In this document: piece by piece, positions 12,463-31,723 of the stretch | How positions within the stretch are numbered: the stretch's first letter is position 1 | Layout: each line of letters begins with the position of its first letter | Source of the DNA: Candidatus Lokiarchaeum ossiferum | GTDB lineage: Archaea > Asgardarchaeota > Lokiarchaeia > Sigyniarchaeales > Promethearchaeaceae | Length of the DNA: 32,000 bases | Direction: 5' to 3' | NCBI GenBank assembly: GCA_025839675.1 | Contig: CP104013.1 | Span: 3,150,001 to 3,182,000, forward strand | Translations under genes and position numbers: made by a program | The notes under the pieces: model-generated | What the model was told of the DNA's origin: nothing | What the model saw: the letters and a program-made list of their open reading frames with translations, nothing else | Database searches by the model: none

Positions 12463-13281
12463 ATGAATTCCTTAGATTTAGTTGAAGAACGAAATATTTT
12501 AGTCGTTCCAATCGGTTTAGAAAATGAGCGGGTTGTTAAAAGCTGCCAAATTTACCCTGTGAACGTCATTTATCTCTTGAAGAGTAACTTTGAATCTAAT
12601 TCTGATCATAAGGAAAAAAACTCATCCCAATGGGGAATAGAACAATACTCAAAAACAATTGCATCTGAAGTCATTAAGAAATTTGAAAATACTTTTTTTG
12701 AAATTCAACCAAAAAATTGCCATCTCGGCTCCCTCCCGAGCACAATTTCTATTTTAAATGACATCTATGAAATTGAACAGAAAAAGGGAAAATTGAACAA
12801 AATTTACATCAATATCTCCACCGCATCCAAATTATTCGCAATTGGGGCCTATATTTTTGCCTCTCAATTCCCCGATATATGCAAACTTTTCTATTTGGCC
12901 ACAAATAATTATCTTCTCTTGGAACACTTGAAATCGGAAAAAGGGGATTTAGAAAAATTAAAAACGGAATTTAGAAAATTTGGTCTAACAAAAGGACCTT
13001 TCAAAGTTGTGAACATCCCAATTCTGAAATCGGACCCTTTTTCAACCGATGAAAAACGATTGATCAATTATTTAGCCCAATTTGACCACATCAATTCGAT
13101 AAAAGAAATATTGGAAAATCTCAAAAAGGATACCAACGCTAAAGAAAGAATGAATCTTCGCAGATCCCTTGAAAAACTCGAGAAAAACAATTTGCTGATA
13201 CTAAAAAAAAGTGGAAAATCGGTTCAGGTTCTTATATCTGATGAATTGAAACAGCTCGCTGGCTCCTTTATACTGGAGTAG
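12463..13281 (+). CDS. Putative Csa3/DUF6293-like (HFX_2341-type) regulator: Rossmann-like N-domain plus C-terminal winged HTH
   Basis: The N-terminus ILVVPIGLENERVV resembles the V-x-P-x-G-x-x-x-x-R start of Csa3/DUF6293 proteins. Also seen are IYINISTASKLFAIGAYIFAS and LFYLATNNY. The C-terminal part (DEKRLINYLAQ...RRSLEKLEKNNLLILKKSGKSVQV) looks wHTH. I prefer the ATG at 12463 over the GTG at 12409. Confidence 0.45.
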   Translation: MNSLDLVEERNILVVPIGLENERVVKSCQIYPVNVIYLLKSNFESNSDHKEKNSSQWGIEQYSKTIASEVIKKFENTFFEIQPKNCHLGSLPSTISILNDIYEIEQKKGKLNKIYINISTASKLFAIGAYIFASQFPDICKLFYLATNNYLLLEHLKSEKGDLEKLKTEFRKFGLTKGPFKVVNIPILKSDPFSTDEKRLINYLAQFDHINSIKEILENLKKDTNAKERMNLRRSLEKLEKNNLLILKKSGKSVQVLISDELKQLAGSFILE

Positions 13282-14857: not shown

Positions 14858-15541
14858 ATGAAAAAAAAAATATTTGCATATTATCGGATTTCAACTGAGA
14901 AACAAAAAAAAAAGAATACTCAGGAAAATCAGAAAATTGCAATTTATAATTTTGTTGAAGGTTTAGACGTTGAAATTGTGAATGAATTTGAAGATTTGGG
15001 TATTTCAGGGGCAGATAATGACCGCCCACAATTCAATCTAATGCTTTCTAAATTGAATGAAGTAGAAGGATTAGTAATCTATGATTTAGACCGATTAACG
15101 AGAGATTTTGAAATGGGAGTAAACTTAATGTTTATGTTGAAAAATTCAAAAAAATCTTTGTATATTGCTCGAACCAAAGATATCAAAGATTTTTCAGATG
15201 ATTCCGAGCAATTAATGACCATTATCAAATCATGGGTTTCTGCACTTGAACGAAAGAAAATTAAAGAAAGACAAAAAATAGGAATTCAACGATATAAAGA
15301 AACAAAAGGTCGTTGGGGTAGAAAGAAATCCTTTGGAAAATATAAAAATCCAGAACAATTTTGGAAAAACTATGATATCTATAGAGATTTGGGTATTTCC
15401 AAGACATCCTGTGCAAAATTATTAGGTGTCTCTCGTTCAACGATGAATAGACGGATAGAAGAACGTGAAATAAATAAGTCGAAAATCAAAACTACCCCAA
15501 TTAATAACAAAATCAAAGAATGGAGCGAACCAAAACTTTAA
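14858..15541 (+). CDS. Small serine recombinase (resolvase/invertase type) with C-terminal HTH
   Basis: The N-terminus IFAYYRISTEKQ carries the Y-x-R-x-S-T-x-x-Q catalytic-Ser motif. Also present are VIYDLDRLTRD and a C-terminal HTH GISKTSCAKLLGVSRSTMNRRI. At 227 aa it is of resolvase/invertase size, not that of a large serine integrase. Confidence 0.85.
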   Translation: MKKKIFAYYRISTEKQKKKNTQENQKIAIYNFVEGLDVEIVNEFEDLGISGADNDRPQFNLMLSKLNEVEGLVIYDLDRLTRDFEMGVNLMFMLKNSKKSLYIARTKDIKDFSDDSEQLMTIIKSWVSALERKKIKERQKIGIQRYKETKGRWGRKKSFGKYKNPEQFWKNYDIYRDLGISKTSCAKLLGVSRSTMNRRIEEREINKSKIKTTPINNKIKEWSEPKL

Positions 15542-15808: not shown

Positions 15809-16597
15809 ATGATTAGAATGATTATTGCATATCTTGACGAAACTGGAGATCCTGTCTATCGAAGGGGTGGCCCTAAATGGTTTGGTATAACTGCCGCAAT
15901 CTTTCATGATTCAAAATTACTTGATGGAATAAATGTGATGAAGTCATTCAATCAAAGTAAATCCGAAGAATATGACTGTGATTTTGAAATACATGCAAGG
16001 GAATTTTCCAGCTCGAAAAAAGAACCTTATAATGCAATGAAAGTTGAAGAAAAAATAGAATTATTTACAGAATGCTTACATACTGTCAAAAATACTGGTG
16101 CTTCAATTTGCGGTGTGTTTGTTGATAAAGTTAAGCATAGTTATTGGCATGGTAAATATGATTTTTTAAAAAATGTAGTTATGAACCTATTTGAAAGGAT
16201 AGGTAGATATCAGATTGCAAATTATCCTAATGAAGCCATTCTGATATTATATGACCAACCTTCTGCCCATTTAAGACCAATTATTAAACAATATTTCAAA
16301 GAAAGATTAGAAGTCGGTTCAAGATATGTCAAACCTGCGTTTTTCTTGAAAGAAATCTTATATGTTGAATCTAAATTTCATCAACCTATTCAAATAGCAG
16401 ATTTAACAGGATATATTGTAAGAAGATTGATAGAAAAACGTATAGATGGTACATTTTCCAGTTTTCTAAAGTATGTTGATGACTTGTATAAAATAATTCG
16501 ACCAATGTTAGATTTCAATCCAACAACAAAAGAAATATATGGGGCAGGAATTAAAATTATTGAAAGTAATGACAGGAAATATTATGGACGTTTCTGA
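15809..16597 (+). CDS. DUF3800-family protein
   Basis: 262 aa. The N-terminus IIAYLDETGD matches the DUF3800 (Y/I)-x-DE-(S/T)-G motif. Also seen are the mid FEIHAREF and the C-terminal ESKFHQPIQIADLTGYIV (the Q-x-AD-x motif typical of the family). Confidence 0.6.
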   Translation: MIRMIIAYLDETGDPVYRRGGPKWFGITAAIFHDSKLLDGINVMKSFNQSKSEEYDCDFEIHAREFSSSKKEPYNAMKVEEKIELFTECLHTVKNTGASICGVFVDKVKHSYWHGKYDFLKNVVMNLFERIGRYQIANYPNEAILILYDQPSAHLRPIIKQYFKERLEVGSRYVKPAFFLKEILYVESKFHQPIQIADLTGYIVRRLIEKRIDGTFSSFLKYVDDLYKIIRPMLDFNPTTKEIYGAGIKIIESNDRKYYGRF

Positions 16598-18337: not shown

Positions 18338-18868
18338 GTGTTTGAAATTCCGAAAGATGATCTCAATCAAGAAAAAGTCGACTACTTAAAAACCGTCTTC
18401 TCCCACAATCGCAGTATGATCCAACTTGCAGACAACAAAGCCAGCATTTTAATCCGAATTATTGTAGTTATCCTCCCAATTATTTTTGGAATCGATTCCT
18501 ACTTAACTACAATTACTCTCCATAATAGCCTAAAAACCTTTCAATATGTTAGCTTTATCATTTGTATGGTTACCTTCATCATTTCATTCTTCTTATCGAC
18601 AGGTGTTCTAATGGCTCGATTTGCTGAATATGATGATCATATCTTCTTTTCAAATATTGAAAAAGATTCCCTTGAAGATTATCAAAATATTATTGAAGAA
18701 ATGGATGATTATGTCATTTTTGAAGATTATATCAAAGAAAATTATGCAATTGCCAAAATCAATAAAAAAAAGTATCAATGCTACAATATTTCCTTTTGGT
18801 TCCTTAATGCTGCGGTACTTTTATTGGTAATTCGATATATCTTATTGTTTACTTACCTTTTTTATTAA
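18338..18868 (+). CDS. Pycsar-effector-like small transmembrane protein (DUF5706/PycTM-type)
   Basis: 176 aa. The N-terminus ...HNRSMIQLADNKASILIRIIVVILPIIFG fits the x-x-AD-x-KA lead-in followed by a TM helix, as in DUF5706. Further TMs are FQYVSFIICMVTFIISFFLSTGVLM and WFLNAAVLLLVIRYILLF. The GTG start has a TATA-like actataaata (18304-18313) ~28 nt upstream, compatible with a leaderless mRNA. Confidence 0.55.
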   Translation: MFEIPKDDLNQEKVDYLKTVFSHNRSMIQLADNKASILIRIIVVILPIIFGIDSYLTTITLHNSLKTFQYVSFIICMVTFIISFFLSTGVLMARFAEYDDHIFFSNIEKDSLEDYQNIIEEMDDYVIFEDYIKENYAIAKINKKKYQCYNISFWFLNAAVLLLVIRYILLFTYLFY

Positions 18869-18890: not shown

Positions 18891-19604
18891 TTATGTCTCT
18901 CTCCCACTATACGCAAATATCTTGTAATTTTTCAATTCTTGAAAATTTGACTTCATTTTCCGAAAATATGAACAACAATAAAACGGAGGTTCAATTTCCT
19001 CACAATTATCTTTCTTTTCCTTGGATAGTTGAAAGAAAACATCGTACCCAATGCAAATCGTGATTTTTTCTTTAAAAGAAGCATGCTTTTTTCCAATGGA
19101 TTCTAATCTCTTCGCTGCTATTGCCGGTTGTCCAACTATTATCAGTTGAGATTTATTTTTAATACCTATACGTTCGACTTTTATTGTCCCAAAATCAATC
19201 CCAACTCGAATTTTTATCTCTGGAAACTTCTTTTTATCTATAAAATAAACGAGTAATTGAGAGATATATATAGCCGTTTTTAATGCTTGATCACATGCCC
19301 ACTTACCATTTTGATCAGATGAGCAAAAACTAATCATTGCCCCATCTCCTGTATATTTGTCAACAACTCCACCATTCTGACTTACTTCATTAAATACCAT
19401 ATGTAAAACTGGACTAATATATTTAATAAATTCAATCTCTGAGTATTTTGATGAGTTTGCAATATCAAATACCATAATAGAGGCATTTAAGGTTCGAACC
19501 TCTCCAATCGCTATTTCATCATCATTAGGAAACTTATTGATATTCTTCTTTCCTGGATTTTTTTTCTTATTTATAAAACTATTGAGCAACTGTACATCAA
19601 CCAA
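18891..19604 (-). CDS. Class III nucleotidyl cyclase domain protein (PycC-like candidate)
   Basis: 237 aa. Metal-binding motif 1 is IMVFDIANSSKY (h-h-F-x-D-h-x-x-S/F-T type). Motif 2 is DKYTGDGAMISF (K-x-x-GD-G/A-x-h-x-x-F). Also present is IRVGIDFGTIKVERIG...IVGQPAIAAKRLES (h-R-h-G-h-x-x-G ... G-x-x-h-N-x-A-x-R-h-E type). The TTG start is preceded by gaggag 8 nt upstream. Confidence 0.75.
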   Translation of the reverse strand: MVDVQLLNSFINKKKNPGKKNINKFPNDDEIAIGEVRTLNASIMVFDIANSSKYSEIEFIKYISPVLHMVFNEVSQNGGVVDKYTGDGAMISFCSSDQNGKWACDQALKTAIYISQLLVYFIDKKKFPEIKIRVGIDFGTIKVERIGIKNKSQLIIVGQPAIAAKRLESIGKKHASFKEKITICIGYDVFFQLSKEKKDNCEEIEPPFYCCSYFRKMKSNFQELKNYKIFAYSGRET

Positions 19605-19754
19605 ATCAGAATCTCCTCAGTATAGTTATTCGCTTGCATTTGGAAGTTGAGAATAGAATCACCATGAATTATTGATTAGACAAAGTTGTTGTTAAATGTT
19701 ATGTTTGGATAAAAAATAATTCTGAATGATTGGATATGGCAAAAGAAAGAGAAA

Positions 19755-19830
19755 TGGCGCAGGTGACAGGGATCGAACCTGCGACCTGCCGGTTAACAGC
19801 CGACCGCTCTACCGACTAAGCTACACCTGC
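19755..19830 (-). tRNA. tRNA-Asn (anticodon GUU), CCA encoded
   Basis: The reverse complement folds by hand as GCAGGTG TA GCTT AGTCGGTA GAGC G GTCGG CTGTTAA CCGGC AGGTC GCAGG TTCGATC CCTGT CACCTGC G CCA. All four stems pair and the anticodon loop CT-GTT-AA is canonical. Confidence 0.95.
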
Positions 19831-20029
19831 ACGCCAACTTGTCATTTTCAAAACCAAAAATAACAAGATGTAAAAATCCACATTCATTAAAAATTTTTCC
19901 TCCGCTCCCTCCCACACTTGCGTCACTCCCCGCAACCCCCCAGTATCCCATTTAAACTTTAGGCTCGCGAGTCGTAAAATTTTAAAACTATCGCGGATTT
20001 GATATTTTGTATTTATACATTACAAACGT

Positions 20030-20137
20030 GCCTTCGTAGTGTAGTCCGGTCAAGCATCTCGGGCCTTCAAATCGTTTGAGATAATAGCGATTAGGTAAAC
20101 CCCGATGACCCGTGTTCGAATCGCGGCGAAGGCACCA
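20030..20137 (+). tRNA. Intron-containing tRNA, probably tRNA-Glu (UUC); 30-nt intron at 20070-20099; CCA encoded
   Basis: The acceptor stem pairs GCCTTCG with CGAAGGC. The D-arm GTGT-AGTCCGGTCAA-GCAT is typical of archaeal Glu/Asp tRNAs. The anticodon stem pairs TCGGG (20059-63) with CCCGA (20101-05). The T-arm is CCGTG-TTCGAAT-CGCGG, followed by discriminator A and CCA. 37 nt lie between the anticodon stem halves, giving the loop CCTTCA|intron|C. The intron contains a hairpin (aatcg/cgatt). Position 33 reads C, not U, so the anticodon call is provisional. Confidence 0.75.
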
Positions 20138-20334
20138 CTCCTTTTCATCCCATCTTATCAATATTTCACACTCAAGCGAATTTGAATATTTTTTCTTTAG
20201 TTGACTATTTCCTACCGGATTTAATAAAATTAGATTGAAGGATATGTTATAAGCTGGATGAATTGATTTATGAACAAGGAAGAAAAAGTTATAGCATAGA
20301 ATGAATAATTGGTGAACTCGGAATAATAAGACAG

Positions 20335-21015
20335 TTAATTGACTAAATAAGTGATTTCCCGTAATTTAGGATGGATATATTGGAGTTTTTCATCTTGGAC
20401 CAATGAGATTTTTTTTAAAGAAGGAATATTGAGGAGAGAATCAGGGATATGAGTAATAGCAGTGTATTCGAGCTCTATTTCTTCCAAAGTGTGCAATTGA
20501 TCAATATTATCAGGGAGTTGGGAGAACTTGGGGGATAATTTGATACCGAGATATGTGAGGGAGGGTAAGTACATGAGATCTTGGGGAAGATGAGTAATAT
20601 TACTTGAACTAATACAAAATTTCTGTAAATTTCTTGAGTTTAATCCTAATCCAATTGGTAACTGAGATAAACGCTTACCTCCAATACAAAGAATTCGTAA
20701 ATTTGGTAAATTTGATAAATCTAAGGGAATTTTATTAAGAAAATCATATTCAATTTCAAGAATTTCTAATTTTGGGAACAGATTAGTTATTTTTTGAATT
20801 TCATCTTCAATTCCAGGAATGGGAGAAGAATGATTTCCAAATAAAAATATTTTAGTAATATTATCAAAACTATCTATAGAGAATTCAAAATCATATTCTT
20901 GTTTATTAGCTTCCCACATATCAAATAAATTTTTGAGAAAAATCTGAATTTCGGATGGAAATCCGGAAAAGGGATAGATTTCTTTTGATTCACGGTCATT
21001 TTTTTGCAATGTCAT
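20335..21015 (-). CDS. Leucine-rich repeat (LRR) protein
   Basis: 226 aa with ~6 consecutive LRR units of ~23 aa (L-x-x-L-x-L-x-x-N-x-L-x-x-L/IP). Examples: LSNLPNLRILCIGGKRLSQLP, NLQKFCISSSNITHLPQDL, LPSLTYLGIKLSPKFSQLPDNI, LHTLEEIELEYTAITHIPDSL, IPSLKKISL. Confidence 0.8.
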   Translation of the reverse strand: MTLQKNDRESKEIYPFSGFPSEIQIFLKNLFDMWEANKQEYDFEFSIDSFDNITKIFLFGNHSSPIPGIEDEIQKITNLFPKLEILEIEYDFLNKIPLDLSNLPNLRILCIGGKRLSQLPIGLGLNSRNLQKFCISSSNITHLPQDLMYLPSLTYLGIKLSPKFSQLPDNIDQLHTLEEIELEYTAITHIPDSLLNIPSLKKISLVQDEKLQYIHPKLREITYLVN

Positions 21016-21090
21016 ATTTTCACCATCAATATTATACTTATTACTAAGATAAAGGGGATTCAGTCATCTATCTTATATTGTTCTATATTT

Positions 21091-24000
21091 TTAAACATCG
21101 TGCTTTTTGTTATATTCTTCTAACCAATTTTTGAAATGCAAATGAATCCATGCAAGGTTTAGTTTTTTATTAATGAATTTTTTATTCATTCTAAGAAAAT
21201 TAATCCACCAGGTCAACATTTTAGAATTAATAGCTTTTGGATTAATTTTACCATCTGAAGTTATTATTTCTTCAACATATGAATTGTTGACAATTAATCC
21301 CAATCTTACTTGAATTTCTTTTGCTCCTTTTTTGCTGTTAAACTTCCATTTTTCATAATAAGATGTATCGGATAAATGTCTCAAAGTATCAATTAATGAC
21401 ATCTGTGAAAGACTTAGAGCAACCAATAATTTTTTAAACTGATATCGACTGAGTAAAGGGGCTTTAATTCCAATATATCGCACATTCTGAACAAATTTCT
21501 CATCCTTGGTCTGATTGAAATAAAAACGGCGAGTCGTAGAATCATCATAGGGAATATAAAGCGGGGCAAACCCACAAGCGAGATAGGCCAGCAATTGCAG
21601 TTCCTTTTTCAACGCATAAAGTTTGCCCTTGAATTTAGCCTTAAATCCAAGACATTCTAAAAGAAGCCCCCACAACTGCTTTTTGATTTTAAAGGTGGCC
21701 CCAATATCCAAGATCGCTTTGCGCGTGGTTTTTCCCTTGCCATCACCTTGATCCATCTGATACTTCACATTAATGGAATCATGGCGGAGGATTTTATTGA
21801 AGGTTTCCCGGGCTTGAATGGACCGAAGCGAAGGTTCAATGATCTTGAGATCATCAAGAATATCGCGTTCAAAGAAGGAGTCAGCGATGACTTTGGTCAA
21901 TTTTCCTTCAATGGTAAAGTATCGAGTAAGGAGAGTGCGGCGATCCAGCTGAGCACTAAGTAGTTCCAATAACTGCGAATAAGTGAGAAAATTACCAGAA
22001 AAGGGTTCAATCCCACCTTGATAAAACTGCCGGGTAGCATACCGATGCCAAGTATTGAAGATGGTCCAGTTGCCGCGAAAGAACAGGTGACAAAAAAACT
22101 GCAAAAAGACATCCAATGCCAAGGTTTGTTGCGGAACAGGGCATGAAAAATAACGCGGAGAACGGGTTGGTTTGACAAAGAGAGATTGAGTATCCTTCAC
22201 AGAAAAGAGAGGAGTCGACAAGGAGAGATAGATTTTGAAAAAATCATTAATAATTCCAGTGACAACTGTGGTGGGGCGGTTGGATGTTAAAGATGCAGTT
22301 GATGCAGGAAGGAGAGGAAAGAGGGCAGTAGCGGAATTTTTTTTAGTGGTAGTATTTTTGATCAAACTTCCAAAGGCTTCTGGGGTGCCTAGGCGGAATA
22401 TTTTACGTAAGAGTTCGAAAAACAACAGGAAGGGTTTCCAAAAGGGCAGATGCAAAGGATGACGTAGGTTAGCATATACAGCGGTGGTAATATCGGAGCT
22501 CCCATCACCAAGAGTGGTTTGAATGAGGGATTTTTCAGGAGGGGAAAGAACTCGCCATTGGGGACTAAGGGCAACCAGAGTTTCTAAATTAGCAGAAAGC
22601 CAATCTTGACGAGTATCTGAACGACCAGGCAGCAAATCGTGAAGGGCAGACGATGTGAAAATTTGTTCAAGGATTTGGGTTCGGGTGACAAAACCATAGT
22701 GTTCGAGCAGGAGTCCAGCATGCAGAATGTGATTCACAGCAATCCATAAATCGTGAAGGGGCGGTTTAGTTCGCAATTTAGTGACATAGTTCTGAATGGA
22801 TTTCACAAGATTCCAACGGGCAAGGGTTTTTAGAGATTTGGTACACCATGCGGTACAGGCAACGTAGGCAATATTCCGAACCATGGTATAGACATCTTGG
22901 AACCACCCCATCTGTTGAATTTTATTATGGCGCGACTCCAAGAAGGATTTAAAGGTGAAGCGCGCATCCAGGAGTTCTTTAAGGTATTCAAGATGAGGGA
23001 GAGCATTACTTTTAAAAATGGGAGGGTGAGATCCTTGAGATCCGATAGTGACAGATTGGAATGCAACAGTCCCTGCAATGGAAAGAGGAACGGCAAAATC
23101 GGGAAGAGGTCCATAAGGAGTGGAACTTGAGAGCCTTATTTTCCCAGTTTTCCATTCGTGTAATAAACGGCAAGCTTCATCATAAGGGAGATGGAGGGAT
23201 TCCATAAAATAAGTTAAAATGAGAGCTTCATTGGCAGGATAGGATGTTTCATAGAGAATAACAGGTTGACGACTTGATTTCGCTTGTTGAGAAAGATATA
23301 TATATGGGTGGGAATGACAATAGTGCTGGAAGGCTTTTTGCTTCATGGCTTCAAAATATGCCGAGGGGGAGGTATGAGATTGGGAGCGAAGAGTCTTTTC
23401 CATTAAGGAATGAAGAAAAGTGGAAAGATCAAAGGTTTGAACATCTTCCAAGGTGGACACTCTGGCAAAGGGAGATATCAAAGGTCCTTCGAGGGATTCG
23501 AGGAGAGTTAGGAGTTCAGGATCAGCGGAGGAAGAATCCAGGCAAGGTTCAGCAGGCAGAGAATCATCGGAGGGTTGGGATGGAGAAGACGCGGAGGTTT
23601 TTGAAGGGGAAGGATCGGAAGGGGGAGAAGAGGTGCCAGCGGCAGTGAAATATAAAGATCGAGAAAGAGAAGGAGAACGGGATAACGCAAATGACATCTG
23701 GGGTTGGAAGGTCATATAAGGCATAAAGGGGAGATAGGGAGAATAGAAGGCGATTGCTGTGCTTTCCGATGATTCCTGTAATTCTTCCCATTCATCTTCT
23801 GGGATGGGAGGTTGATAAGTAATGAAACGCATTTTTTGACGTTGTCGTCGTTTATGGGATTGAAAAATGTGTTTTTGACGGATTTTGTGTAAAAAATGTC
23901 GGTAATCGCGCAAAAGGTCCATGAATACTCGAAAGGTGACATGAGTAAGGGTTAATTGGAGGGTGTTAAGAAAAGAAAGTAACTCCTGCGCGGACAAATC

Positions 24001-26547
24001 TAAGAAGGAGTTGTGAGATGGGAATAGGGTATGTAAAAGAGCATATAATGTGTCAAGGAGTTGTTTGCGGGGGAGATTCAATGAATTGAAAGTCCGAAGA
24101 TACATTTGAAGACCATGTTGGTCAGAAGGTAATGGGTCAGATGGGGGATGATCAGATGTAGAAACAGGAGGGTCGCAGGTTTCCGCGTTTGATTCGTGGT
24201 TCACAGTATTTTCTGTGTATTCTTCTCCATTTCCTTCATTAGTTTTTTTTTCAGATACTTCTTCTGTCTCTTCCTCACACTCTGACGAAGTGAGGACAGG
24301 AGATGAGGGTGAAATGTTAGGTTTGGAAGTTTCAGAACACTTATCCCCAAAGAATTCAGTATAGGATTGAGTGGGTGCAGTTGTAGAAGCTTCACTGTCA
24401 TACAAAGCGGAAAATTGATCGATATCTTCAGAATTTGGAGGATTCAGCAGATGATCCTCTTCCAAGGGAGAATCAATGTCTTCAAATGGTGGCTCTATAT
24501 CCCGAAGGGATGTTTCATCAATTTCAGGGGAAGTGATTTGCAAATCAGAATCAAGTTCGGAATAAATTTCTTCGGATTGAGTAACGGATGGTGATTCTAA
24601 AGAAAGGAAATCTTCATATCCATCACTCGGTCCGTATGTATTCTCAGAAACCCGCTGTTGTCTGCTATCATCTTCAGATTCAACGAATGCATCTGAATCA
24701 GAATCCATGTTCGATTCCAATGTGGAAATATCATCTATTTCGAATTCCTCCGGTTCGATAATGACTTCATCATCATGAAGGTCTGAAATAGGGGAAGAGG
24801 TAGAATCCTCACAATCTTGCTTATCTCCTTCGTGAAGAGCACTAAGAAAATGGGTTTCGTCTACTGCATTTTCTTTGGGATCAACGAGTTCTGGGATGGA
24901 GGATATATCATCGGTCGATAAATTTTCGATTGTGAAGTCTTCTAGAACATCAGACTGATCCTTATCCGTTGTATTTGGGAAAAAAATTTCATCAGAATTA
25001 ATTTCAATGGGAATTAATGATTCTGAATCGATTTCGGGATTCAGAGGAGGTGGATCAACTAAAATGGGATGCTCATTCAGGGTGGAAGGATCTTCGAGAA
25101 ATTCGTTGGGGGCAAAATTTTCGTCATTTTTGATCATAGGCTCATCCAATTGAGTTTCATCAAAGGGAAATTCGAAATACTGTTCCAATTCGGGATCAAT
25201 GATCAAATCATAGGAGTCTACTTCAAGAGGGAGAGACATAGGAGCAAGCGGATCTTCAAGAGCAGAAATTTCTGTGGGGAGATTAGGATCAAGTATCTCC
25301 TCTTGTAGGAGATCTTCAAGGGAGACATCACCATGATTTACATTAGGTTCAAGATCATAGAGAATATCGGAGATTTCAGGGAATTCTGGAAAAATATCTT
25401 CTTCAATTAAAATTTCAGGAAGGTCACTTGAAGAAGTCATATCCTCAAGGGTTGCTTCCACATCTTCCCATGACATTTGCATTTCTTCTTCCAAGGGATC
25501 GAAGGAGGCTTCAGATAATTCACCTTGTAACAAAAGTTCTCCTTCTGGATTATCCGGATCGTCTCCGAAAGAGATCGGAATCCAATCTCCCGATGTGGTG
25601 GTGGAATCGGATTCGGAGAGGTTTTCCAAATCTTCGAGAGAAAGGGAATCTAATTCCGGTGGAAGCTGAATCATAACCATACCTTCCTCAGAGTCGAGCA
25701 ATAGATCTTCACCGGGGAAGAGTTCAGATGAAGGATCATCAGTATCTGCTTCGTGTGGGAAATCATCACCAGCCATCCCCAGGTCTTCAGCAGGGAGAAA
25801 ATCATTCCATGAATCAGATTCTGCTGAAGTTTCAATGTCGGAAGTGAGTTCAGGATCGTTTGCGGGTAAATATTCTAAGTCAGATGAATCCTCAGGAACA
25901 AGAAGGTTTTCATTGTCAGTATTGTCCACACTGTTCTCGACGGAGTCGTCATGGGAAGTCGAATCTTCGAATTCAGCTGGGATCTCCTCGGATTCGGGAA
26001 TTGATTCTTCCGAAGAATTGAATTGAGAATCGGAATTATCTTCAATTTCATCAGAATCTGATGCAATTGTTTCGTCGGGAAGTAAATTTTCTTCATCCTC
26101 AGATTCATTATCTCCATTAGTCACATTTTCAGAATCGCTAATGAGAGAACCTGGTTCAGTAGTGTCTTGAAAATCGTTACCATCTGCAATCTCACTATCG
26201 TCCTCGGAAGAAACATCTTCTTGCGCTTCTGATGGATCTGAAGGTTCCGAAGGTTCTAAAAGTTCCAAAGGGCCTTCATTCTTTTCCCCTTCATCATCGG
26301 AGGTCTCCTGCGAATCTTCAGAAGAATCAGGAGTTTCGTTAATCTTCTCATCATTGTCTTCTTCGTTATTTTGATCATTTCCTTCTTCAGTGTTTTCATC
26401 CCTCTCTTCTTCTACCTTTTCATCCCTTTCTTCTTCTACCTTTTCATCCCTTTCTTCTTCTACCTTTTCATCACTCTCTTCTTCTTCCTTTTCTTCTTCC
26501 TTTTCATCGTTTTCTTCTTCGATTTCGTTTTCGATGTCTTGTGTCAT
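21091..26547 (-). CDS. Giant orphan protein (1818 aa): ~750-aa polyacidic low-complexity N-terminus, Ser/Pro-rich linkers, ~900-aa C-terminal region with no recognisable domain
   Basis: A single uninterrupted 5.46-kb ORF. The ATG lies 15 nt after the stop of the upstream ATPase gene, and the spacer contains gaggaagg. The N-terminus is E/D/S-rich (MTQDIENEIEEENDEKEEEKEEEESDEKVEEERDEK...). A basic patch HKRRQRQKMRF sits near aa ~890. I could find no canonical catalytic or NTP-binding motif by eye. Confidence 0.8.
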   Translation of the reverse strand: MTQDIENEIEEENDEKEEEKEEEESDEKVEEERDEKVEEERDEKVEEERDENTEEGNDQNNEEDNDEKINETPDSSEDSQETSDDEGEKNEGPLELLEPSEPSDPSEAQEDVSSEDDSEIADGNDFQDTTEPGSLISDSENVTNGDNESEDEENLLPDETIASDSDEIEDNSDSQFNSSEESIPESEEIPAEFEDSTSHDDSVENSVDNTDNENLLVPEDSSDLEYLPANDPELTSDIETSAESDSWNDFLPAEDLGMAGDDFPHEADTDDPSSELFPGEDLLLDSEEGMVMIQLPPELDSLSLEDLENLSESDSTTTSGDWIPISFGDDPDNPEGELLLQGELSEASFDPLEEEMQMSWEDVEATLEDMTSSSDLPEILIEEDIFPEFPEISDILYDLEPNVNHGDVSLEDLLQEEILDPNLPTEISALEDPLAPMSLPLEVDSYDLIIDPELEQYFEFPFDETQLDEPMIKNDENFAPNEFLEDPSTLNEHPILVDPPPLNPEIDSESLIPIEINSDEIFFPNTTDKDQSDVLEDFTIENLSTDDISSIPELVDPKENAVDETHFLSALHEGDKQDCEDSTSSPISDLHDDEVIIEPEEFEIDDISTLESNMDSDSDAFVESEDDSRQQRVSENTYGPSDGYEDFLSLESPSVTQSEEIYSELDSDLQITSPEIDETSLRDIEPPFEDIDSPLEEDHLLNPPNSEDIDQFSALYDSEASTTAPTQSYTEFFGDKCSETSKPNISPSSPVLTSSECEEETEEVSEKKTNEGNGEEYTENTVNHESNAETCDPPVSTSDHPPSDPLPSDQHGLQMYLRTFNSLNLPRKQLLDTLYALLHTLFPSHNSFLDLSAQELLSFLNTLQLTLTHVTFRVFMDLLRDYRHFLHKIRQKHIFQSHKRRQRQKMRFITYQPPIPEDEWEELQESSESTAIAFYSPYLPFMPYMTFQPQMSFALSRSPSLSRSLYFTAAGTSSPPSDPSPSKTSASSPSQPSDDSLPAEPCLDSSSADPELLTLLESLEGPLISPFARVSTLEDVQTFDLSTFLHSLMEKTLRSQSHTSPSAYFEAMKQKAFQHYCHSHPYIYLSQQAKSSRQPVILYETSYPANEALILTYFMESLHLPYDEACRLLHEWKTGKIRLSSSTPYGPLPDFAVPLSIAGTVAFQSVTIGSQGSHPPIFKSNALPHLEYLKELLDARFTFKSFLESRHNKIQQMGWFQDVYTMVRNIAYVACTAWCTKSLKTLARWNLVKSIQNYVTKLRTKPPLHDLWIAVNHILHAGLLLEHYGFVTRTQILEQIFTSSALHDLLPGRSDTRQDWLSANLETLVALSPQWRVLSPPEKSLIQTTLGDGSSDITTAVYANLRHPLHLPFWKPFLLFFELLRKIFRLGTPEAFGSLIKNTTTKKNSATALFPLLPASTASLTSNRPTTVVTGIINDFFKIYLSLSTPLFSVKDTQSLFVKPTRSPRYFSCPVPQQTLALDVFLQFFCHLFFRGNWTIFNTWHRYATRQFYQGGIEPFSGNFLTYSQLLELLSAQLDRRTLLTRYFTIEGKLTKVIADSFFERDILDDLKIIEPSLRSIQARETFNKILRHDSINVKYQMDQGDGKGKTTRKAILDIGATFKIKKQLWGLLLECLGFKAKFKGKLYALKKELQLLAYLACGFAPLYIPYDDSTTRRFYFNQTKDEKFVQNVRYIGIKAPLLSRYQFKKLLVALSLSQMSLIDTLRHLSDTSYYEKWKFNSKKGAKEIQVRLGLIVNNSYVEEIITSDGKINPKAINSKMLTWWINFLRMNKKFINKKLNLAWIHLHFKNWLEEYNKKHDV
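26397..26492 (-). repeat. 24-nt tandem repeat (3 near-perfect copies plus 1 degenerate) encoding (DEKVEEER)n
   Basis: The plus-strand unit catccctYtcttcttctacctttt occurs at 26397-26420, 26421-26444 and 26445-26468, with a degenerate copy at 26469-26492. It lies in frame within the N-terminus of the 1818-aa CDS. Confidence 0.85.
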
Positions 26548-26562
26548 GAAAGATTTCCTTCC

Positions 26563-29139
26563 TCAAGGGGAATGTTCTAGTTGTTGTCCAACCGGTTTCA
26601 TAAATAAAATAATTGTGATGATTTTTTTCGCGAGGATGTATAATTGATAAACTAATTTGGGGGTGAGTTTGGGATGTCTGTTAGAACAATGGGACCAAAG
26701 GCGATTAAACAATGATACATAGCGATCAAATTGTTCCTTTAAAGCAATTTTAGCACCCCATAGGATTGTTATGTTGGGAATCATGTGATTTAAACAAGTG
26801 GCACTAATTTTTTGTCCTGAAGATTTCTTTTGAAGATAGAAATGAAGTCGGGTTCCCCATATGGATTGCACTAAGGAAAAAGCTTGAAAAAGGTAATGGT
26901 GCTGTAAACAATAGGCAAAGGAATTTTTCAAATGTTTCATAGTATTTTCTTGGAGAAAGCATGGATGATAATAGGGTTGTTGATAAAGGAGCTTTTGATA
27001 GTGCCAGAGCCAGAGAGTTCGAGGATGCAGGATTGGAGGAGGATTGGTGATTGAAACACCTTGGTCCGTAATTTTTTTTGTGAACCCAAGAAATCGATCT
27101 GCCGCATTGATCAATAGGAAATGACGTTTGGGTAATGTTTGTAGAATTCGAATTTCTTTGGGATCAGTGCTAAAAAGAGTGGGGGATTGTGAGTCATTTA
27201 AGTTGAAGAGAATTCTAATTCCGGGAATCATTTGCACATTTGGAATTAACGACGAAGGATTTTGATCTGCAAAAATCATAGCCAAACCTCGGCTGCGATA
27301 CTCGGTTAGGATTTCGTGCATTAATTGACTCATTTTTTGAGTGGCATTGTTTTCATCCGATTCATGGATCCCTTGGGAATAAGATTTAGAGAAGACACGG
27401 TGACATTCATCAATCAGAAGGACATAATGGAGATGGCCTTTTTGTTCAGGAAGATAGGATTGAATCATATTGAGGATGAGAAATACCAAGAATTTTTTAA
27501 TAGCTTCACTGCAGGGAGTAAGGTCTAAGAATATGGATTTTCCTTGGATCCAGTAATTGAACCAGGCGGGGACAAATGTACGATATGCGGTAGTGCGGAT
27601 AAATTCTTTAGTAAGTAAGCTATCAATTCGATTTTCGAGCACTCGCAAAATGTTTTTCTGGACATTCGCACCATATTGATGTTTAGCTTCTGTATGATCG
27701 GTCACCACCGCATTAAAAAAGAGCCGGAGCGTAGAAGGAATTTGGCGTTTAGCAACAACGCGTTTTAGAACAGTATGAAAGATCGAATTGTAAGGATCAC
27801 CCCGCCCAACTCCAGCCACTAGCATGTCTGCAGCACTTCGAAGGAGTTGTTCCCTATTTGCAACGGGGGAACGATAATTTTCAATATTAAACTCCCGTTT
27901 CTCTATGCCCAGAGTTAAATAAGGGATCAATAACATTTCATCCCCATAGGTAAACACTTGATCTACTACTCCTTGATATTCATTTACCTGCGTAGATTTT
28001 CCAATACCAAGAATTAATTTTCCAACGTGGGGTTGTTTCGTCGCGAGTTCATCCATTAAAATACGTAGAAAACTACTTTTTCCAAATCCAGGTTTTCCAG
28101 CTACAATCATATGGCGTGGGAGATCATCGATGGGAATTGTAACCGGATTGGAGGTAATTTGGCTATTAGAAACAAAAGTTCCTAGATTTAAACGAGAGGG
28201 GATATCTATATGTTCTTCGAGAAAGATATTTTCGAGGGGATATGCGTAACTGGAGCGAATTTTGAGGTTGGAGGGAAAAGAGAAATCAAAATTTCGTTTA
28301 GTAACTTCTAAGGATGATTCCAATGATGTCAGATCCTTTAATCCATTGATCAGGTCCCAGTAATAATAGCTGACTGAAGTATCCAAAGTGCTGATAGTAG
28401 CAAGATTAGTTTTGGGTGAATTATGTCTACTTTTCAAGCAAGAATTAAATGAATTTCTTAAGGAATTTAGATTTTGAAGGATTTCATCATAGTGATCTTT
28501 TGGGGGAGGATGAGCGAGAAAATCACACCAAAAAAAGATGCGAATGGAATATTTCTCATCATAGGGATGACTAGTTGTACCAGTTTTTTGAAACAATAAG
28601 GCGCAATGAAAATCCGATGTAGTATTGATGGCCATAGCGACAAAATTTGGAATTAGGGTTAGAGATGTATGAAGAAATAAATGACCTGTAAACTTAAGTT
28701 CCCAGATTCGAATGAATTCGTTAAGGGGTTGAATAGGAATTATGGTGACTTCTCCATCGAGGCCAAGAAGGCTTGTTTTGAGCCGATTGAGGATTATTTT
28801 AGAATTTTGTTCTTGGAACGCTTGGTTGGAAGTATTTGGAACGAAGAGTTTCATGCTTTTTTTGGTGATATCCACGATATATACTTGGCCATCTCCCAAG
28901 TAATCTAGTATCCATGGTGAATCAGTGGAAGATTGGTTGATAGATTTTGCAGAATGGAATTTTTCTTCTGATTCAGAGGCAGATAATGGTTTGGTAACAA
29001 TATTAATTACAAAATGAGTTGGAAGAGCAGAGGAATCCTGAGAATTGGGACAGGAAGAACCTGATAGAGTTTTTATCACCATGTTTATCGCCAAATGGGT
29101 GCTGAGAAGGACAAAAGAAGATCCCTGAGTCCGAATCAC
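26563..29139 (-). CDS. HerA/FtsK-superfamily (DUF87/VirB4-like) P-loop ATPase; start codon uncertain
   Basis: Up to 858 aa. Walker A is PRHMIVAGKPGFGKSS. Walker B is HYVLLIDECHRVF. The downstream YRSRGLAMIFADQNPSSL resembles the R-E-G-R-K-x-G-h-x-h-h-x-x-S/T-Q-R-P-S-x-L block of HerA-like proteins, and LQTLPKRHFLLINA resembles the terminal L-x-x-L-x-x-G-x-A-h-h block. The GTG at 29139 lies ~29 nt from a TATA-like ctttataaaa (29164-29173). Alternative ATG: M20 at 29082. Confidence 0.8.
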   Translation of the reverse strand: MIRTQGSSFVLLSTHLAINMVIKTLSGSSCPNSQDSSALPTHFVINIVTKPLSASESEEKFHSAKSINQSSTDSPWILDYLGDGQVYIVDITKKSMKLFVPNTSNQAFQEQNSKIILNRLKTSLLGLDGEVTIIPIQPLNEFIRIWELKFTGHLFLHTSLTLIPNFVAMAINTTSDFHCALLFQKTGTTSHPYDEKYSIRIFFWCDFLAHPPPKDHYDEILQNLNSLRNSFNSCLKSRHNSPKTNLATISTLDTSVSYYYWDLINGLKDLTSLESSLEVTKRNFDFSFPSNLKIRSSYAYPLENIFLEEHIDIPSRLNLGTFVSNSQITSNPVTIPIDDLPRHMIVAGKPGFGKSSFLRILMDELATKQPHVGKLILGIGKSTQVNEYQGVVDQVFTYGDEMLLIPYLTLGIEKREFNIENYRSPVANREQLLRSAADMLVAGVGRGDPYNSIFHTVLKRVVAKRQIPSTLRLFFNAVVTDHTEAKHQYGANVQKNILRVLENRIDSLLTKEFIRTTAYRTFVPAWFNYWIQGKSIFLDLTPCSEAIKKFLVFLILNMIQSYLPEQKGHLHYVLLIDECHRVFSKSYSQGIHESDENNATQKMSQLMHEILTEYRSRGLAMIFADQNPSSLIPNVQMIPGIRILFNLNDSQSPTLFSTDPKEIRILQTLPKRHFLLINAADRFLGFTKKITDQGVSITNPPPILHPRTLWLWHYQKLLYQQPYYHPCFLQENTMKHLKNSFAYCLQHHYLFQAFSLVQSIWGTRLHFYLQKKSSGQKISATCLNHMIPNITILWGAKIALKEQFDRYVSLFNRLWSHCSNRHPKLTPKLVYQLYILAKKIITIILFMKPVGQQLEHSP

Positions 29140-29204
29140 CCTCTACAAGTATATAATTTAGATCTTTATAAAATCAAAAAGATGCAGAAGGAAGAAGATA
29201 AATG

Positions 29205-29378
29205 TTATTTGGAGGAAAAAAGGCACCCAGCAACAAGTAAAATTATGATGAGAAGGTCATAAGGTCCAAAAAAGGGGATTGATCGAGTAATCCAAACAAA
29301 TTTAGAATTAAAATATAAAATACCTATAATAATAACAAAGATAGTGACAATTTTTCCAAGATCAAGTCCCCTTCTCAT
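29205..29378 (-). CDS. Small 2-TM membrane protein (57 aa)
   Basis: MRRGLDLGKIVTIFVIIIGILYFNSKFVWITRSIPFFGPYDLLIIILLVAGCLFSSK. I prefer the ATG at 29378 over the TTG at 29459 in the ORF track. A TATA-like ttttaaa lies ~26 nt upstream, and the paralogous fragment at 30692-30790 starts at the equivalent Met. Confidence 0.5.
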   Translation of the reverse strand: MRRGLDLGKIVTIFVIIIGILYFNSKFVWITRSIPFFGPYDLLIIILLVAGCLFSSK

Positions 29379-29570
29379 AAAATCTATTCCATCATATATA
29401 TTTAAAATCGAAGAATGAATGATGGATTCTGATTTAAGAAATATCTGGAAAAAAAACAAAAGGCAATATAAAAAAAGGCATTGGAAATAATTTTGTAATA
29501 TTTGTTAATACTACAATATAAGATATTATAATGTTATTAAGTATAATGCAAGGAGAAGAGTATAATAATA

Positions 29571-29717
29571 ATGAAAAAAAAACAAATTACAATCAGCTTG
29601 GATGAGGATGTCATAAAAAAAATGGAAGAAGTGAGAAAGATAACCGGACTCCCAATCAGTACCCAAATAGAACTCAAATTGAAAGGATATATTGTGAAGA
29701 AAGAAATAGATGAATAA
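29571..29717 (+). CDS. Ribbon-helix-helix (CopG/Arc-like) small DNA-binding protein (48 aa)
   Basis: It is not in the ORF track because it is shorter than 60 aa. The sequence is MKKKQITISLDEDVIKKMEEVRKITGLPISTQIELKLKGYIVKKEIDE. The N-terminal beta-strand pattern (K-x-I-T-I-S-L-D) followed by two helices is typical RHH. aggag lies upstream. A paralog at 30356-30517 conserves GLPISTQIELK-x-KGYIV. Confidence 0.6.
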   Translation: MKKKQITISLDEDVIKKMEEVRKITGLPISTQIELKLKGYIVKKEIDE

Positions 29718-29718
29718 A

Positions 29719-30174
29719 TTAATAGCCAAATAATTTCCTTGAAATAAAATTTCGTTTTTGATATATTTCAAAATTGTGAATAATTTCATCCATTTCTTTT
29801 TCAATTCGTTTTACCCAACCTTCATTGGATTCTAACTTCTTTTTTTTGGGGATATGAGTTAGTTTTTTGAGATTGGAATCGAAATTTCCTTTATTTCGGA
29901 AATTTATCGCATCATTTTTTACCAGTAAATCTAAAAGATATTGTACACTTGACATCATATCCTCACAGAAATTAAAATCAGGAATTATGGAAGCTTTCAT
30001 TAGGACATATTCTCGATGTTTCCAAACGTTGATTATTATTTTCAATTGTCCAAAAATATCTTGAATATTTTCATTGTTTGCTTCTTGTTTTTTGAAAACC
30101 CGATCAATTACTTTTTTGATTATATACGGGATTATAATAGTGATTAATCCCAAAATATAAGAAAGCAAGTCCAT
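29719..30174 (-). CDS. Hypothetical N-terminally membrane-anchored protein (151 aa)
   Basis: The N-terminal TM is LLSYILGLITIIIPYII, followed by a charged soluble domain. A TATA-like tttatata lies ~30 nt upstream of the ATG. No family was recognised. Confidence 0.5.
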   Translation of the reverse strand: MDLLSYILGLITIIIPYIIKKVIDRVFKKQEANNENIQDIFGQLKIIINVWKHREYVLMKASIIPDFNFCEDMMSSVQYLLDLLVKNDAINFRNKGNFDSNLKKLTHIPKKKKLESNEGWVKRIEKEMDEIIHNFEIYQKRNFISRKLFGY

Positions 30175-30355
30175 TTGATCTAGTAAGAAAACTTATAGTA
30201 TATAAACTTTTAAGATAAAACATTTTATTATAATTTAATCTCTTATGTTGCCTTAGAAACTATTATAATATAGGTAATTATAAGGATTTTTAAATACACA
30301 CACGTATAGTATATTGGAGAAAACAATTTGATCTTTTCTTCAATTAGATAATGTG

Positions 30356-30517
30356 ATGGCAATGACAAAAAAACAAGTCACTATAACTCTAGATCATTCT
30401 ATTGTACACGAAATGGAGCAGATTCGGGAGGATACAGGTCTCCCAATTAGTACACAAATAGAATTGAAGATGAAAGGATATATTGTCAGAAAAGAACATG
30501 AACCAATTGCAAACTAA
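30356..30517 (+). CDS. Ribbon-helix-helix small protein (53 aa), paralog of 29571-29717
   Basis: The sequence is MAMTKKQVTITLDHSIVHEMEQIREDTGLPISTQIELKMKGYIVRKEHEPIAN. It aligns end to end with the 48-aa RHH. It is below the ORF-track cut-off. Confidence 0.6.
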   Translation: MAMTKKQVTITLDHSIVHEMEQIREDTGLPISTQIELKMKGYIVRKEHEPIAN

Positions 30518-30691
30518 ATTTTAGGAGGTTTTTTTTTACCAAGCTGTTTTTTTTTCTATATTTTGTTGAGATTACTCAAAAAACTTGGAAGTAATAATAT
30601 TTAAATTGTTTGTGGGAATATGATGGGAATCGAAATCATTTTTTCATTAATGCAGATAAGAATTATAATTTGACCCTACTTGATTGCTAAT

Positions 30692-30790
30692 TCAAATTTC
30701 AAGATATTCTAGATTTCCTAGGAATACTGATGGCGAATCTATTTTGAAAAAGATAGTGACAATTTTACCAAAATCAAGTCTCCTTCCCAT
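30692..30790 (-). pseudogene. Truncated or diverged paralog of the small 2-TM protein gene
   Basis: It encodes MGRRLDFGKIVTIFFKIDSPSVFLGNLEYLEI. The first 14 aa and the upstream ~40 nt (including tttaaaa at -26) match 29337-29420, after which the sequence diverges and loses both TM helices. Nucleotide similarity is visible over about 30752-30830. Confidence 0.35.
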
Positions 30791-30913
30791 GAAATATCTT
30801 TTTTCCAGATTATTTAAAACCGAAAGAGGATGGATTGAGTAAAAAGCAAAAAAAACTAGAACTAAAATTTTTTGCGAACGAAAAGAAAAAATGTAAGAAG
30901 ATAATCCTAAACA

Positions 30914-31723
30914 TTAGATACGGAACTTTTCTCGAAGTAGATTTGATGGTTTAGCATATTGATAGGGTCCACAAATTTTTTTGGTGGAGATGGCCGTTGT
31001 GGGGCAATGATTGTAACAGAACCAACACCCGAAACATTTTTCCTCATCAAATTGGGGGTTTGGGGATAAAGTAATTGCTCCATAGGGACAACCTTTTTCA
31101 CAGATACCACATTTGGTGCATTTTTCAAGATCAACATATTTTTCACCCATATCTTTCTTTGCGGTTTCGGTCGACAACCGGAGAATTTTGCTGAGAATGG
31201 TAGTTATTAAATTTGTTCTAACTTTCGCTGCTGGAAAATTTTCCATTGTTGGATGGGTGGATAATATTAACTTCAATTCGGAAATAAAGGCGTCAAATTT
31301 GGTTAATTCCTGCGAATTTGGAGAATTTTCATAACTTTGACCTCGTTTTATCATTGGAGGGTAATTTTCAGGGAGGTGTAAGGCAAAACTGGCAATCGTA
31401 CGGAACCCTCGCTTTTTTATGGCTTTTGCCAGTGATTTCAAAGTATTTCCTGAAGTGAATCCATGAGTGCTAAGAATGAAAGCAGGTTTATTTGATTGTT
31501 CAGCAATATTTTCCACAAATTGCATGACTAAATGCGAGGGGAGCCAAAAATTAGTAAAAGTTGCAAATCCAATTATTTTGAAATTATCAAGATCAGGAAT
31601 AGTATCATATTTTGCCATGTTAAAAAGTTCGAAGTCAATTTTTGAATTTAATTTGTGGACAAGATAGTTACAAGCAAGTTTAGTGTTACCAGATCCCGAA
31701 TAATAGAAGATTATCCCTCTCAT
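30914..31723 (-). CDS. Flavodoxin-like domain fused to a 2x[4Fe-4S] ferredoxin domain (EFR1-type)
   Basis: The N-terminus MRGIIFYYSGSGNTKLA is a flavodoxin FMN-phosphate loop. The C-terminus has two Cys clusters, CTKCGICEKGCP and CFGCWFCYNHCP (C-x2-C-x2-C-x3-CP). Confidence 0.8.
   Translation of the reverse strand: MRGIIFYYSGSGNTKLACNYLVHKLNSKIDFELFNMAKYDTIPDLDNFKIIGFATFTNFWLPSHLVMQFVENIAEQSNKPAFILSTHGFTSGNTLKSLAKAIKKRGFRTIASFALHLPENYPPMIKRGQSYENSPNSQELTKFDAFISELKLILSTHPTMENFPAAKVRTNLITTILSKILRLSTETAKKDMGEKYVDLEKCTKCGICEKGCPYGAITLSPNPQFDEEKCFGCWFCYNHCPTTAISTKKICGPYQYAKPSNLLREKFRI

Follow-up and report, generated by a model that had tools for sequence, protein, structure and literature searches.

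Is a divergent FtsK/HerA-type ATPase in Candidatus Lokiarchaeum ossiferum part of a defence-type cassette with a putative nuclease-fold effector and a leucine-rich-repeat partner?

What kind of system is encoded where the gene of an FtsK/HerA-type ATPase lies tightly against that of a giant protein in the chromosome of an Asgard archaeon? The question is raised by a stretch of 32,000 nucleotides (nt) from Candidatus Lokiarchaeum ossiferum (contig CP104013.1, positions 3,150,001 to 3,182,000), which we call the window. On its minus strand three genes follow one another: an ATPase of probably 839 amino acids (aa) that is identical to NEF87_002690 (26563..29082), a giant protein of 1818 aa identical to NEF87_002689 (21091-26547), and a leucine-rich-repeat (LRR) protein of 226 aa, presumably NEF87_002688 (20335-21015). 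An earlier note, based on the letters and the open reading frames (ORFs) alone, had proposed that the ATPase and the giant, then thought to be an orphan, might form a HerA-partnered defence system with a novel effector. We find that the three genes are an operon-like cassette and that the giant ends in a domain of a rare family, predicted to be nuclease-like, whose conserved neighbour is an LRR protein. A defence-type system composed of ATPase, nuclease-fold effector and LRR partner is the reading we tentatively prefer.

The orphan status of the giant did not survive an exhaustive HMMER (phmmer) search with its C-terminal region, which recovered 11 relatives among 1.84 billion representatives at E-values from 6.5e-97 to 8e-4. 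A word-indexed search with the same C-terminus or with the family alignment returned nothing, the query itself included; scans with a family pattern retrieved from GTDB genomes only the already known contig L010, again as L013, and found no match in JGI metagenomes or IMG/VR (L and P numbers are our labels for contigs and proteins). Two relatives are annotated as Candidatus Harpocratesius repetitus, also of the Lokiarchaeia, and the others lie on contigs of metagenomes or metagenome-assembled genomes with 27-37% guanine plus cytosine (G+C). The family appears to be rare, and its placeable members all seem to belong to the Lokiarchaeia. Its proteins vary widely in length (182-832 aa, plus the 1818-aa form) and in architecture: the giant from about aa 1060 onwards is common to the longer members P0004 and P0010, while P0006 consists of the core domain only, so that this domain can evidently stand alone. 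On contig L011 (339-4131, assembly GCA_029935835.1), the gene of P0006 (226 aa) comes 52 nt after that of an unrelated membrane or surface protein of 1019 aa.

The conserved core domain was delimited by phmmer, alignment, AlphaFold2 and Foldseek to aa 1534-1818 of the giant (21094..21948, minus strand). Its AlphaFold2 model reaches 88.3 in the predicted local distance difference test (pLDDT), with a predicted template modelling score (pTM) of 0.88; it opens with elements in the order alpha-beta-beta-beta-alpha-beta and continues into a helical subdomain with IGxxAPLL, QxAFG and WWxN motifs. Foldseek against the PDB found no significant neighbour (best E 0.08), and SwaI, BamHI, FokI, MspJI, PfoI, MunI, MUS81 and RecU recur in these non-significant lists for the whole fragment and for the core only. 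Against BFVD, a set of predicted viral structures, the best matches have E-values of 4.5e-3 to 0.1, with probabilities that reach 0.95-0.99, and those that carry a name are mostly of PD-(D/E)xK type (DUF2726, endonuclease, restriction endonuclease, PD-(D/E)XK, DUF1064, VRR-NUC, Cas4, Mrr-like). With moderate confidence, the model points to a restriction-endonuclease-like domain followed by a helical subdomain. The earlier observation that the giant has no recognisable motif holds for profiles, as no PADLOC, Pfam or NCBIfam model matches it, DUF4297 and SIR2 included, and no consistent match came from scanning every member of the family against Pfam and PHROG, the family having no Pfam model; it does not hold for the predicted fold. 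A profile search of the PDB with the core alignment returned CooA as its sole match, which we judge to be due to chance.

The alignment of the core has 12 invariant columns, among them E1631, K1648 and the WW-x-N motif. E1631 (21655-21657) and K1648 (21604-21606) are invariant in 12 of 12 sequences, D1614 (21706-21708) in all 11 that cover it, and E1560 of helix 1 is kept in seven of nine. In the model, D1614 immediately precedes one strand of a hairpin, E1631 lies 17 residues further on in the partner strand and K1648 sits on the next helix, and the spacing of the residues implies that D1614 and E1631 should stand opposite each other. D1614, E1631 and K1648 are candidate active-site residues (21604..21708, minus strand). 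The predicted order of secondary-structure elements, with an acidic residue modelled before the hairpin strand, a second in its partner and a conserved glutamate in helix 1, resembles that of the PD-(D/E)xK superfamily (DUF2726, VRR-NUC, Mrr, Cas4), the families that Foldseek retrieves preferentially. Unlike these, the core has no significant sequence or profile similarity to known members, departs from the (D/E)xK signature after its glutamate and carries a helical subdomain of about 120 aa, with WWxN and QxAFG, that has no counterpart.

If the core is the conserved part of the giant, what is its conserved partner? The 226-aa protein encoded 75 nt downstream in the same direction, recorded earlier as the LRR gene that ends the string, matches Pfam LRR_8 well above the cut-off (38.2 bits versus 27; 1.2e-9). 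It is not an appendix of this one locus: in the window, L005, L006 (two LRR genes), L007 (weak Pfam match) and L008, the next co-directional gene codes for an LRR protein. An LRR-like product is thus found immediately downstream in five of the eight informative loci, compared with none of 56 other genes there (rough Fisher p = 7e-6). The product in L007, for all its weak Pfam match, ends in the same distinctive tail as other partners. This non-LRR tail, roughly FL..P...YY......LAQK...D..SLS....RL..E....R, is common to the partners in L005 (12273-13394), L006 (3700-4200), L007 (11193-12293) and L008 (11451-13067); between the LRR gene of the window and the neighbouring tRNA gene no remnant of a truncated tail is present. 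In L010 the downstream gene product is weakly ankyrin-like instead.

The ATPase follows another distribution. Its tight coupling to the giant is borne out by a gap of 15 nt, and the order of ATPase and acidic giant recurs in one other contig, L001, where the acidic ORF runs off the contig end. The idea that L001 and L004 could be halves of one locus was dropped, P0004 being an entire ORF of its own that is preceded by stop codons. At nine further loci with homologs of the C-terminal region (L004-L008, L010-L012 and L009, the last a second contig for P0014) no ATPase gene is adjacent, with only 918 nt available upstream in L006, 494 nt in L004 and 353 nt in L012. The earlier note had itself named such ATPase-free homologs as grounds for giving up the partnership; as we understand these neighbourhoods, they speak against an obligate ATPase partner for the family and not against one for the Lokiarchaeum form. 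The ancient conserved unit, by the same comparison, appears to be the nuclease-fold protein with its LRR protein, to which the ATPase and the acidic extension would be additions seen so far only in the Lokiarchaeum ossiferum genome and in L001.

The ATPase had been listed with 858 aa, which is correct for the longest form of its ORF (26563-29139, GTG start). Translation most likely begins at ATG 29082 and yields 839 aa, because the alignment with the homolog P0002 starts from this internal ATG and the length of NEF87_002690 in GenBank agrees. Translation also verified the reported Walker A GKPGFGKS (28075-28098), Walker B LLIDECH (27400-27420) and ADQNPSSL block (27247-27270), all on the minus strand; all three are conserved in P0002, where the first is invariant and the others read VIDECH and ADQDPPSL. 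The ADQNPSSL block resembles the ATQRPS-type motif of FtsK/HerA ATPases. P0002, at 47% identity, is the sole homolog found by a word-indexed search and pattern scans, and the scans with the ATPase alignment had no match in GTDB genomes, JGI metagenomes or IMG/VR.

To which branch of the superfamily does this protein belong? The description of an ATPase with all HerA/DUF87 landmarks stands for the motifs and the superfamily, and less so for the family: DUF87/HerA (PF01935) scores 20.7 bits, below its gathering cut-off of 23.2 (5e-4), whereas FtsK_SpoIIIE (PF01580) passes with 29.1 bits against a cut-off of 24 (8e-7), only over aa 326-391. P0002 has a precomputed PF01935 match. The best PADLOC model for the core is PDLC04140 mad8 (E 6e-14, aa 318-657 against model positions 1-263 of 314), and PADLOC HerA models match short stretches only, at E 5e-9 to 2e-3. 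The NCBIfam model HerA_antiphage gives 15.3 bits, far from the cut-off of 800 for membership in the anti-phage HerA family. The sequence matches in NCBIfam and the PDB are very weak and all fall in the same superfamily (CedD, anti-phage HerA, TdpA, TrwB, FtsK/SpoIIIE-family); the only PDB chain that matches outside the P-loop, again very weakly, is 8j4u, a HerA partnered with SIR2/DUF4297. Around the P-loop core domain (about aa 300-640), the N-terminal 300 aa or so and the C-terminal 180 aa or so have no detectable relatives except P0002, and no profile covers aa 1-300. The protein is, on these matches, a divergent member of the FtsK/HerA superfamily and presumably a ring-forming nucleic-acid motor.

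The giant reaches its length through two regions that precede the core. The first 800 aa (24148..26547, minus strand) are a polyanionic, disordered low-complexity region, with 267 D/E and 21 K/R and no recognisable domain; aa 801-1533 (21949..24147) are mostly helical and poorly modelled by AlphaFold2 (pLDDT mostly below 60). Compared with the acidic arm the core is basic, aa 1601-1800 holding 37 K/R and 15 D/E. Near the N-terminus, a 24-nt tandem repeat (26393-26493, minus strand; 4.2 copies, 94% identity) encodes EEERDEKV four times, and two public short-read contigs, L002 and L003, both stop just inside this repeat region. At aa 322 (about 25540-25585, minus strand) there is one WIPISFGDDPDNPEGE motif, and the acidic region of L001 has several copies of the similar W-V-x-V-P-Y-G-D-x-P-x-x-P-E-G-E. 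In the general form W-[IV]-x-[IV]-x-[FY]-G-D-x-P-x-x-P-E-G-E this is the only alignable element of the acidic regions, present once in the window and at least six times in L001 (2618-4498).

Are the genes expressed together? The minus-strand string, with its ORF sizes and gaps, is present as first reported. The ATPase stop codon and the spacer (26548..26565) read TGA-ggaaggaaatctttc-ATG, and the purine-rich, Shine-Dalgarno-like element TTGAGGAA lies 16-17 nt before the ATG of the giant. The same element is found at the same distance in L001, and its occurrence at both junctions fits co-transcription and coupled translation. Upstream, the TATA-like boxes are real: TTTTATAAAG lies in a 21-nt block, TTTTGATTTTATAAAGATCTA (29159..29179, minus strand), which resembles an archaeal TFB-recognition element (BRE) and TATA box about 80 nt before the ATPase ATG. 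The block contains TTTTATAA(A/G)G and aligns with positions 2-22 of L001, nearly all bases being identical where the flanks diverge, and is probably the ATPase promoter.

A 57-aa ORF with two hydrophobic segments (29205-29378, minus strand) had been placed at the head of the string, 65 nt before the ATPase. The ORF exists and the distance applies to the GTG-start form; from the likely ATG it is 122 nt. We do not count this ORF in the cassette because it lies upstream of the ATPase promoter, was not called as a gene on contig L002 and belongs to a locally duplicated small-gene pair, its degenerate paralog being 1.4 kb away. The duplicated module extends over 29205-30842. It includes two ribbon-helix-helix (RHH)-like ORFs on the plus strand (29571-29717, 48 aa; 30353-30517, 54 aa) that share GLPISTQIELK, the truncated 32-aa paralog of the two-segment ORF (30692-30790, minus strand) and a 90-nt repeat with 76% identity between 29337-29426, which covers the start of the 57-aa ORF and sequence upstream of it, and 30749-30838.

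Which genes surround the cassette? Pfam and PADLOC scans place an OLD/GajA-like ATPase with DUF4435 at 8915-11134, an SNase-like ORF of 101 aa at 11235-11540 that overlaps a 210-aa ORF by 4 nt, a CARF-like/HFX_2341_N protein at 12409-13281, a serine recombinase at 14858-15541, a DUF3800 protein at 15809-16597 and the convergent Pycsar genes PycTM (18338-18868) and PycC (18891-19604). The defence genes between 8915 and 19604 all lie to the left of two tRNA genes, and the cassette abuts this island. The island matches the cluster of Pycsar and Gabija systems that a 2026 preprint reports for strain B35 and finds absent from strain B36, which marks this part of the genome as a variable defence island. 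In Harpocratesius, AbiEi/AbiEii genes are found 1.4 kb from the pair of nuclease-fold and LRR genes of L008. Further to the left in the window, a 1452-aa protein (4087-8445, minus strand) has a signal-peptide-like N-terminus, an internal repeat of about 190 aa that is present three times and numerous calcium-binding-type motifs of the form D-x-D-x-D.

The composition of the cassette bears on its origin. The higher G+C, the amino-acid bias and the many antisense ORFs pointed out earlier are all confirmed: between about 21.5 and 28 kb G+C amounts to 0.40-0.44, against 0.27-0.35 in the rest of the window, and compared with neighbouring genes the cassette proteins are enriched in H, Q, P, S, T and L and depleted in K, E and I. 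G+C and codon profiles within the window show that the anomaly is real and arises chiefly at the first and second codon positions, which indicates that the rise in G+C reflects amino-acid composition. At third codon positions (GC3) the shift is modest, 0.33 in the ATPase and 0.35 in the giant against about 0.27 +/- 0.055 in the other genes of the window; only aa 1001-1600 of the giant stand out (0.38-0.43), and in composition the giant gene at its 3' end, like the LRR gene, resembles host sequence. A scan of 19600-31000 (seed 10, minimum length 14) detected no direct repeats at the flanks, whether derived from a tRNA or not, and neither an integrase or recombinase nor another hallmark gene of mobile elements lies between 20335 and 29400. 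The anomaly at codon positions 1 and 2 and the absence of flanking repeats make a recent horizontal acquisition of the module, as suggested earlier, possible and weakly supported. The G+C of L001 was set aside as a sign of foreign origin, as assembly GCA_029935835.1 is compositionally heterogeneous.

How might the parts work together? We tentatively interpret the cassette, at somewhat less than even confidence, as a defence-type system in which an FtsK/HerA-type ATPase is joined by a nuclease-fold effector and an LRR partner. The ATPase ring would engage nucleic acid and load, activate or feed substrate to the effector, as HerA does with DUF4297 or NurA; the C-terminal core domain would be the DNA-cutting effector. 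The LRR protein could act as a binding, sensing or docking partner, and we speculate that the polyanionic arm is an intramolecular mimic that shields either the basic nuclease domain or the motor and so holds the system off until a trigger arrives. Its Gabija-like and Pycsar neighbours suggest that the cassette serves in defence against viruses or plasmids. The analysis shows the order of the genes, their homologies and neighbourhoods, and a fold model with its conserved residues; nuclease cleavage, contacts between the proteins, the part played by the arm and a function in defence are inferred from these. The superfamily assignment, the tight coupling, the nuclease-like fold and the defence neighbours thus all speak for the proposal of the earlier note, and a family that mostly occurs without the ATPase speaks against it.

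Several further observations weigh against this interpretation. The residue two positions after E1631 is a leucine and not the canonical (D/E)xK lysine, the sole invariant lysine being on the following helix, so that nuclease activity is not assured. No nuclease profile of Pfam, PADLOC, NCBIfam or PHROG matches the core family. The pairing of ATPase and giant is seen in two loci only, next to the nine loci that have no adjacent ATPase gene, and the LRR protein of the window lacks the tail common to the other partners. Most loci of the nuclease-fold and LRR pair, such as L006 and L007, lie among housekeeping genes and not in defence islands. PADLOC does not call the cassette as a system, nor does the PADLOC analysis of B35 in the 2026 preprint list it.

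A comparison with known systems indicates which parts of the arrangement are new. The effector of DUF4297-HerA is, according to two reports, a Cap4-like nuclease activated by the HerA ring (PMC11291478; bioRxiv 10.1101/2024.10.24.620088), and the nuclease-like fold at the C-terminus of the giant makes this logic of HerA plus effector a fitting one for the cassette. Like DUF4297-HerA and SIR2-HerA, the cassette places the gene of an FtsK/HerA-superfamily ATPase tightly beside that of an effector in a defence island. Unlike them, its ATPase reaches no curated HerA threshold (HerA_antiphage, DUF87), its effector matches neither the DUF4297 nor the SIR2 profile and has homologs mostly without any ATPase, and the order is ATPase first, with 800 aa of acidic sequence and helical regions in the effector and an LRR gene as third member. 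The cassette shares with MADS, the methylation-associated defence system, its best profile match, mad8, which the MADS preprint does not describe biochemically; this match covers the P-loop domain only, and the cassette contains no other mad genes and no methyltransferase. With HerA-NurA it would have in common an archaeal ring ATPase of the same superfamily paired with a nuclease that is fed DNA by the ATPase. NurA has an RNase H-like fold, from which the predicted nuclease fold of the giant differs, and the cassette has no Mre11/Rad50 neighbours, an ATPase far from canonical HerA and a patchy instead of universal distribution. There is also a likeness to the LRR receptors of eukaryotes (NLR, TLR), in that the gene of an LRR protein is linked to that of a putative effector and the host is an Asgard archaeon; in the window, LRR and effector are separate proteins, no NACHT/STAND module is present, and the sensing role of the LRR protein is a purely putative one. 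The logic of ATPase plus nuclease is therefore known, and what is new are the effector family, its linkage to an LRR protein, the acidic extension and the three-gene arrangement.

Could the conserved pair serve the daily business of the cell instead? The nuclease-fold and LRR proteins of Lokiarchaeia, with or without the ATPase, might help to repair or recombine DNA, to handle chromosomes or to transmit signals, and the ATPase would then serve as a DNA translocase. The pair of L006 does adjoin MCM and a Hel308-like helicase, transporter and shikimate-pathway genes border those of L007 and L008, several paralogs occur per genome (two in Harpocratesius), and HerA-NurA is a DNA repair machine of archaea. 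A core function would be unusual for a family so rare and patchy, with 12 representatives among 1.84 billion, and the widely varying lengths and architectures and the position of the window copy in a strain-variable island argue in the same direction; we regard this explanation as rather unlikely. Another view, which we consider unlikely, sees in the giant a scaffold, a condensate-former or a DNA mimic without enzymatic activity, its core an inactive, degenerate nuclease fold that docks the LRR protein, and in the ATPase a machine that remodels or translocates it in the manner of EssC-type proteins. It would account for the leucine in place of the catalytic lysine, for the polyanionic region and for the weakness of the fold matches, and the best Pfam match of the ATPase, FtsK_SpoIIIE, is to a family that includes protein translocases. 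That D, E and K are strictly invariant among members only 20-40% identical points to chemistry rather than mere binding; moreover, the core is basic, as expected of a nucleic-acid binder, the ATPase has no transmembrane segments and no secretion-system partners are found nearby.

The two tRNA genes beside the cassette have a place in two other explanations. One is the tRNA-Asn (19755-19830, minus strand), identified by tRNA scans. The other is the intron-containing tRNA (20030-20137, plus strand), which was missed by Rfam and by a default run of ARAGORN and was recovered in its intron mode 197 nt from the LRR stop codon, close to the roughly 200 nt given before. It is conceivable that the cassette is cargo or machinery of a virus or plasmid integrated next to these genes, with the ATPase as a packaging or conjugative pump and the giant as a structural or injected protein, as the earlier note had offered for choice. 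This location, the G+C above that of the surroundings, the serine recombinase, the RHH-like small genes upstream and weak matches in PHROG, to an FtsK/SpoIIIE-like protein and a terminase large subunit, would agree with it. The PHROG matches are confined to the P-loop region, however, and the Pycsar genes stand between the cassette and the recombinase, which is 4.8 kb distant; flanking repeats are absent, as are capsid, portal and replication genes, GC3 is just about one standard deviation above that of neighbouring genes, and neither protein has a match in INPHARED phages, PLSDB plasmids or IMG/VR by tblastn or pattern scans, which leaves this origin very doubtful. The intron-containing tRNA also invites the thought that ATPase and giant are a single polyprotein, made by read-through of the TGA codon: the stop codon (26563-26565) and the start of the giant (26545-26547) are in the same frame across the 15-nt spacer, and the intron mode of ARAGORN assigns the tRNA the anticodon TCA (labelled SeC, selenocysteine), in a fold whose anticodon stem contains a C-C mismatch and whose variable arm is of the normal short kind. 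The minimum-energy structure from RNAfold has a perfect UCGGG/CCCGA stem, a bulge-helix-bulge-like intron, an unusual C at position 33 and the anticodon UUC, which reads Glu. A shared frame arises by chance one time in three, and the LRR ORF and a 151-aa ORF (29719-30174) are also in it. As the giant has its own ATG and the conserved Shine-Dalgarno-like element, and as the ATPase of L001 ends in TAA, 23 nt before a giant that is out of frame, we reject such a fusion as hardly credible.

Altogether, these comparisons return us to the tentative reading of a motor, an acidic arm, a putative nuclease and an LRR partner as one defence-type system; a search of papers and supplements by locus tags and assembly accession found no mention of these genes. 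Even in the most sober reading, a confidently folding domain family without a Pfam model has been defined. If the preferred reading is true, it would add a new effector family and a new architecture to the HerA-type pairs of ATPase and nuclease in defence. The host is one of the very few cultured Asgard archaea, and as a virus-host system has newly become available for its sister strain, the proposal is testable. The conserved link between LRR proteins and a putative nuclease in Lokiarchaeia also bears on the question of LRR-based recognition before eukaryotes. We speculate, in a proposal that we deem decidedly unlikely, that an LRR sensor or adaptor and a new PD-(D/E)xK-like nuclease form a two-gene immune module of the Lokiarchaeia, to which Lokiarchaeum added a motor and a DNA-mimicking, auto-inhibitory arm of 800 residues; if so, LRR-linked innate immunity would be present in the closest cultured archaeal relatives of eukaryotes.

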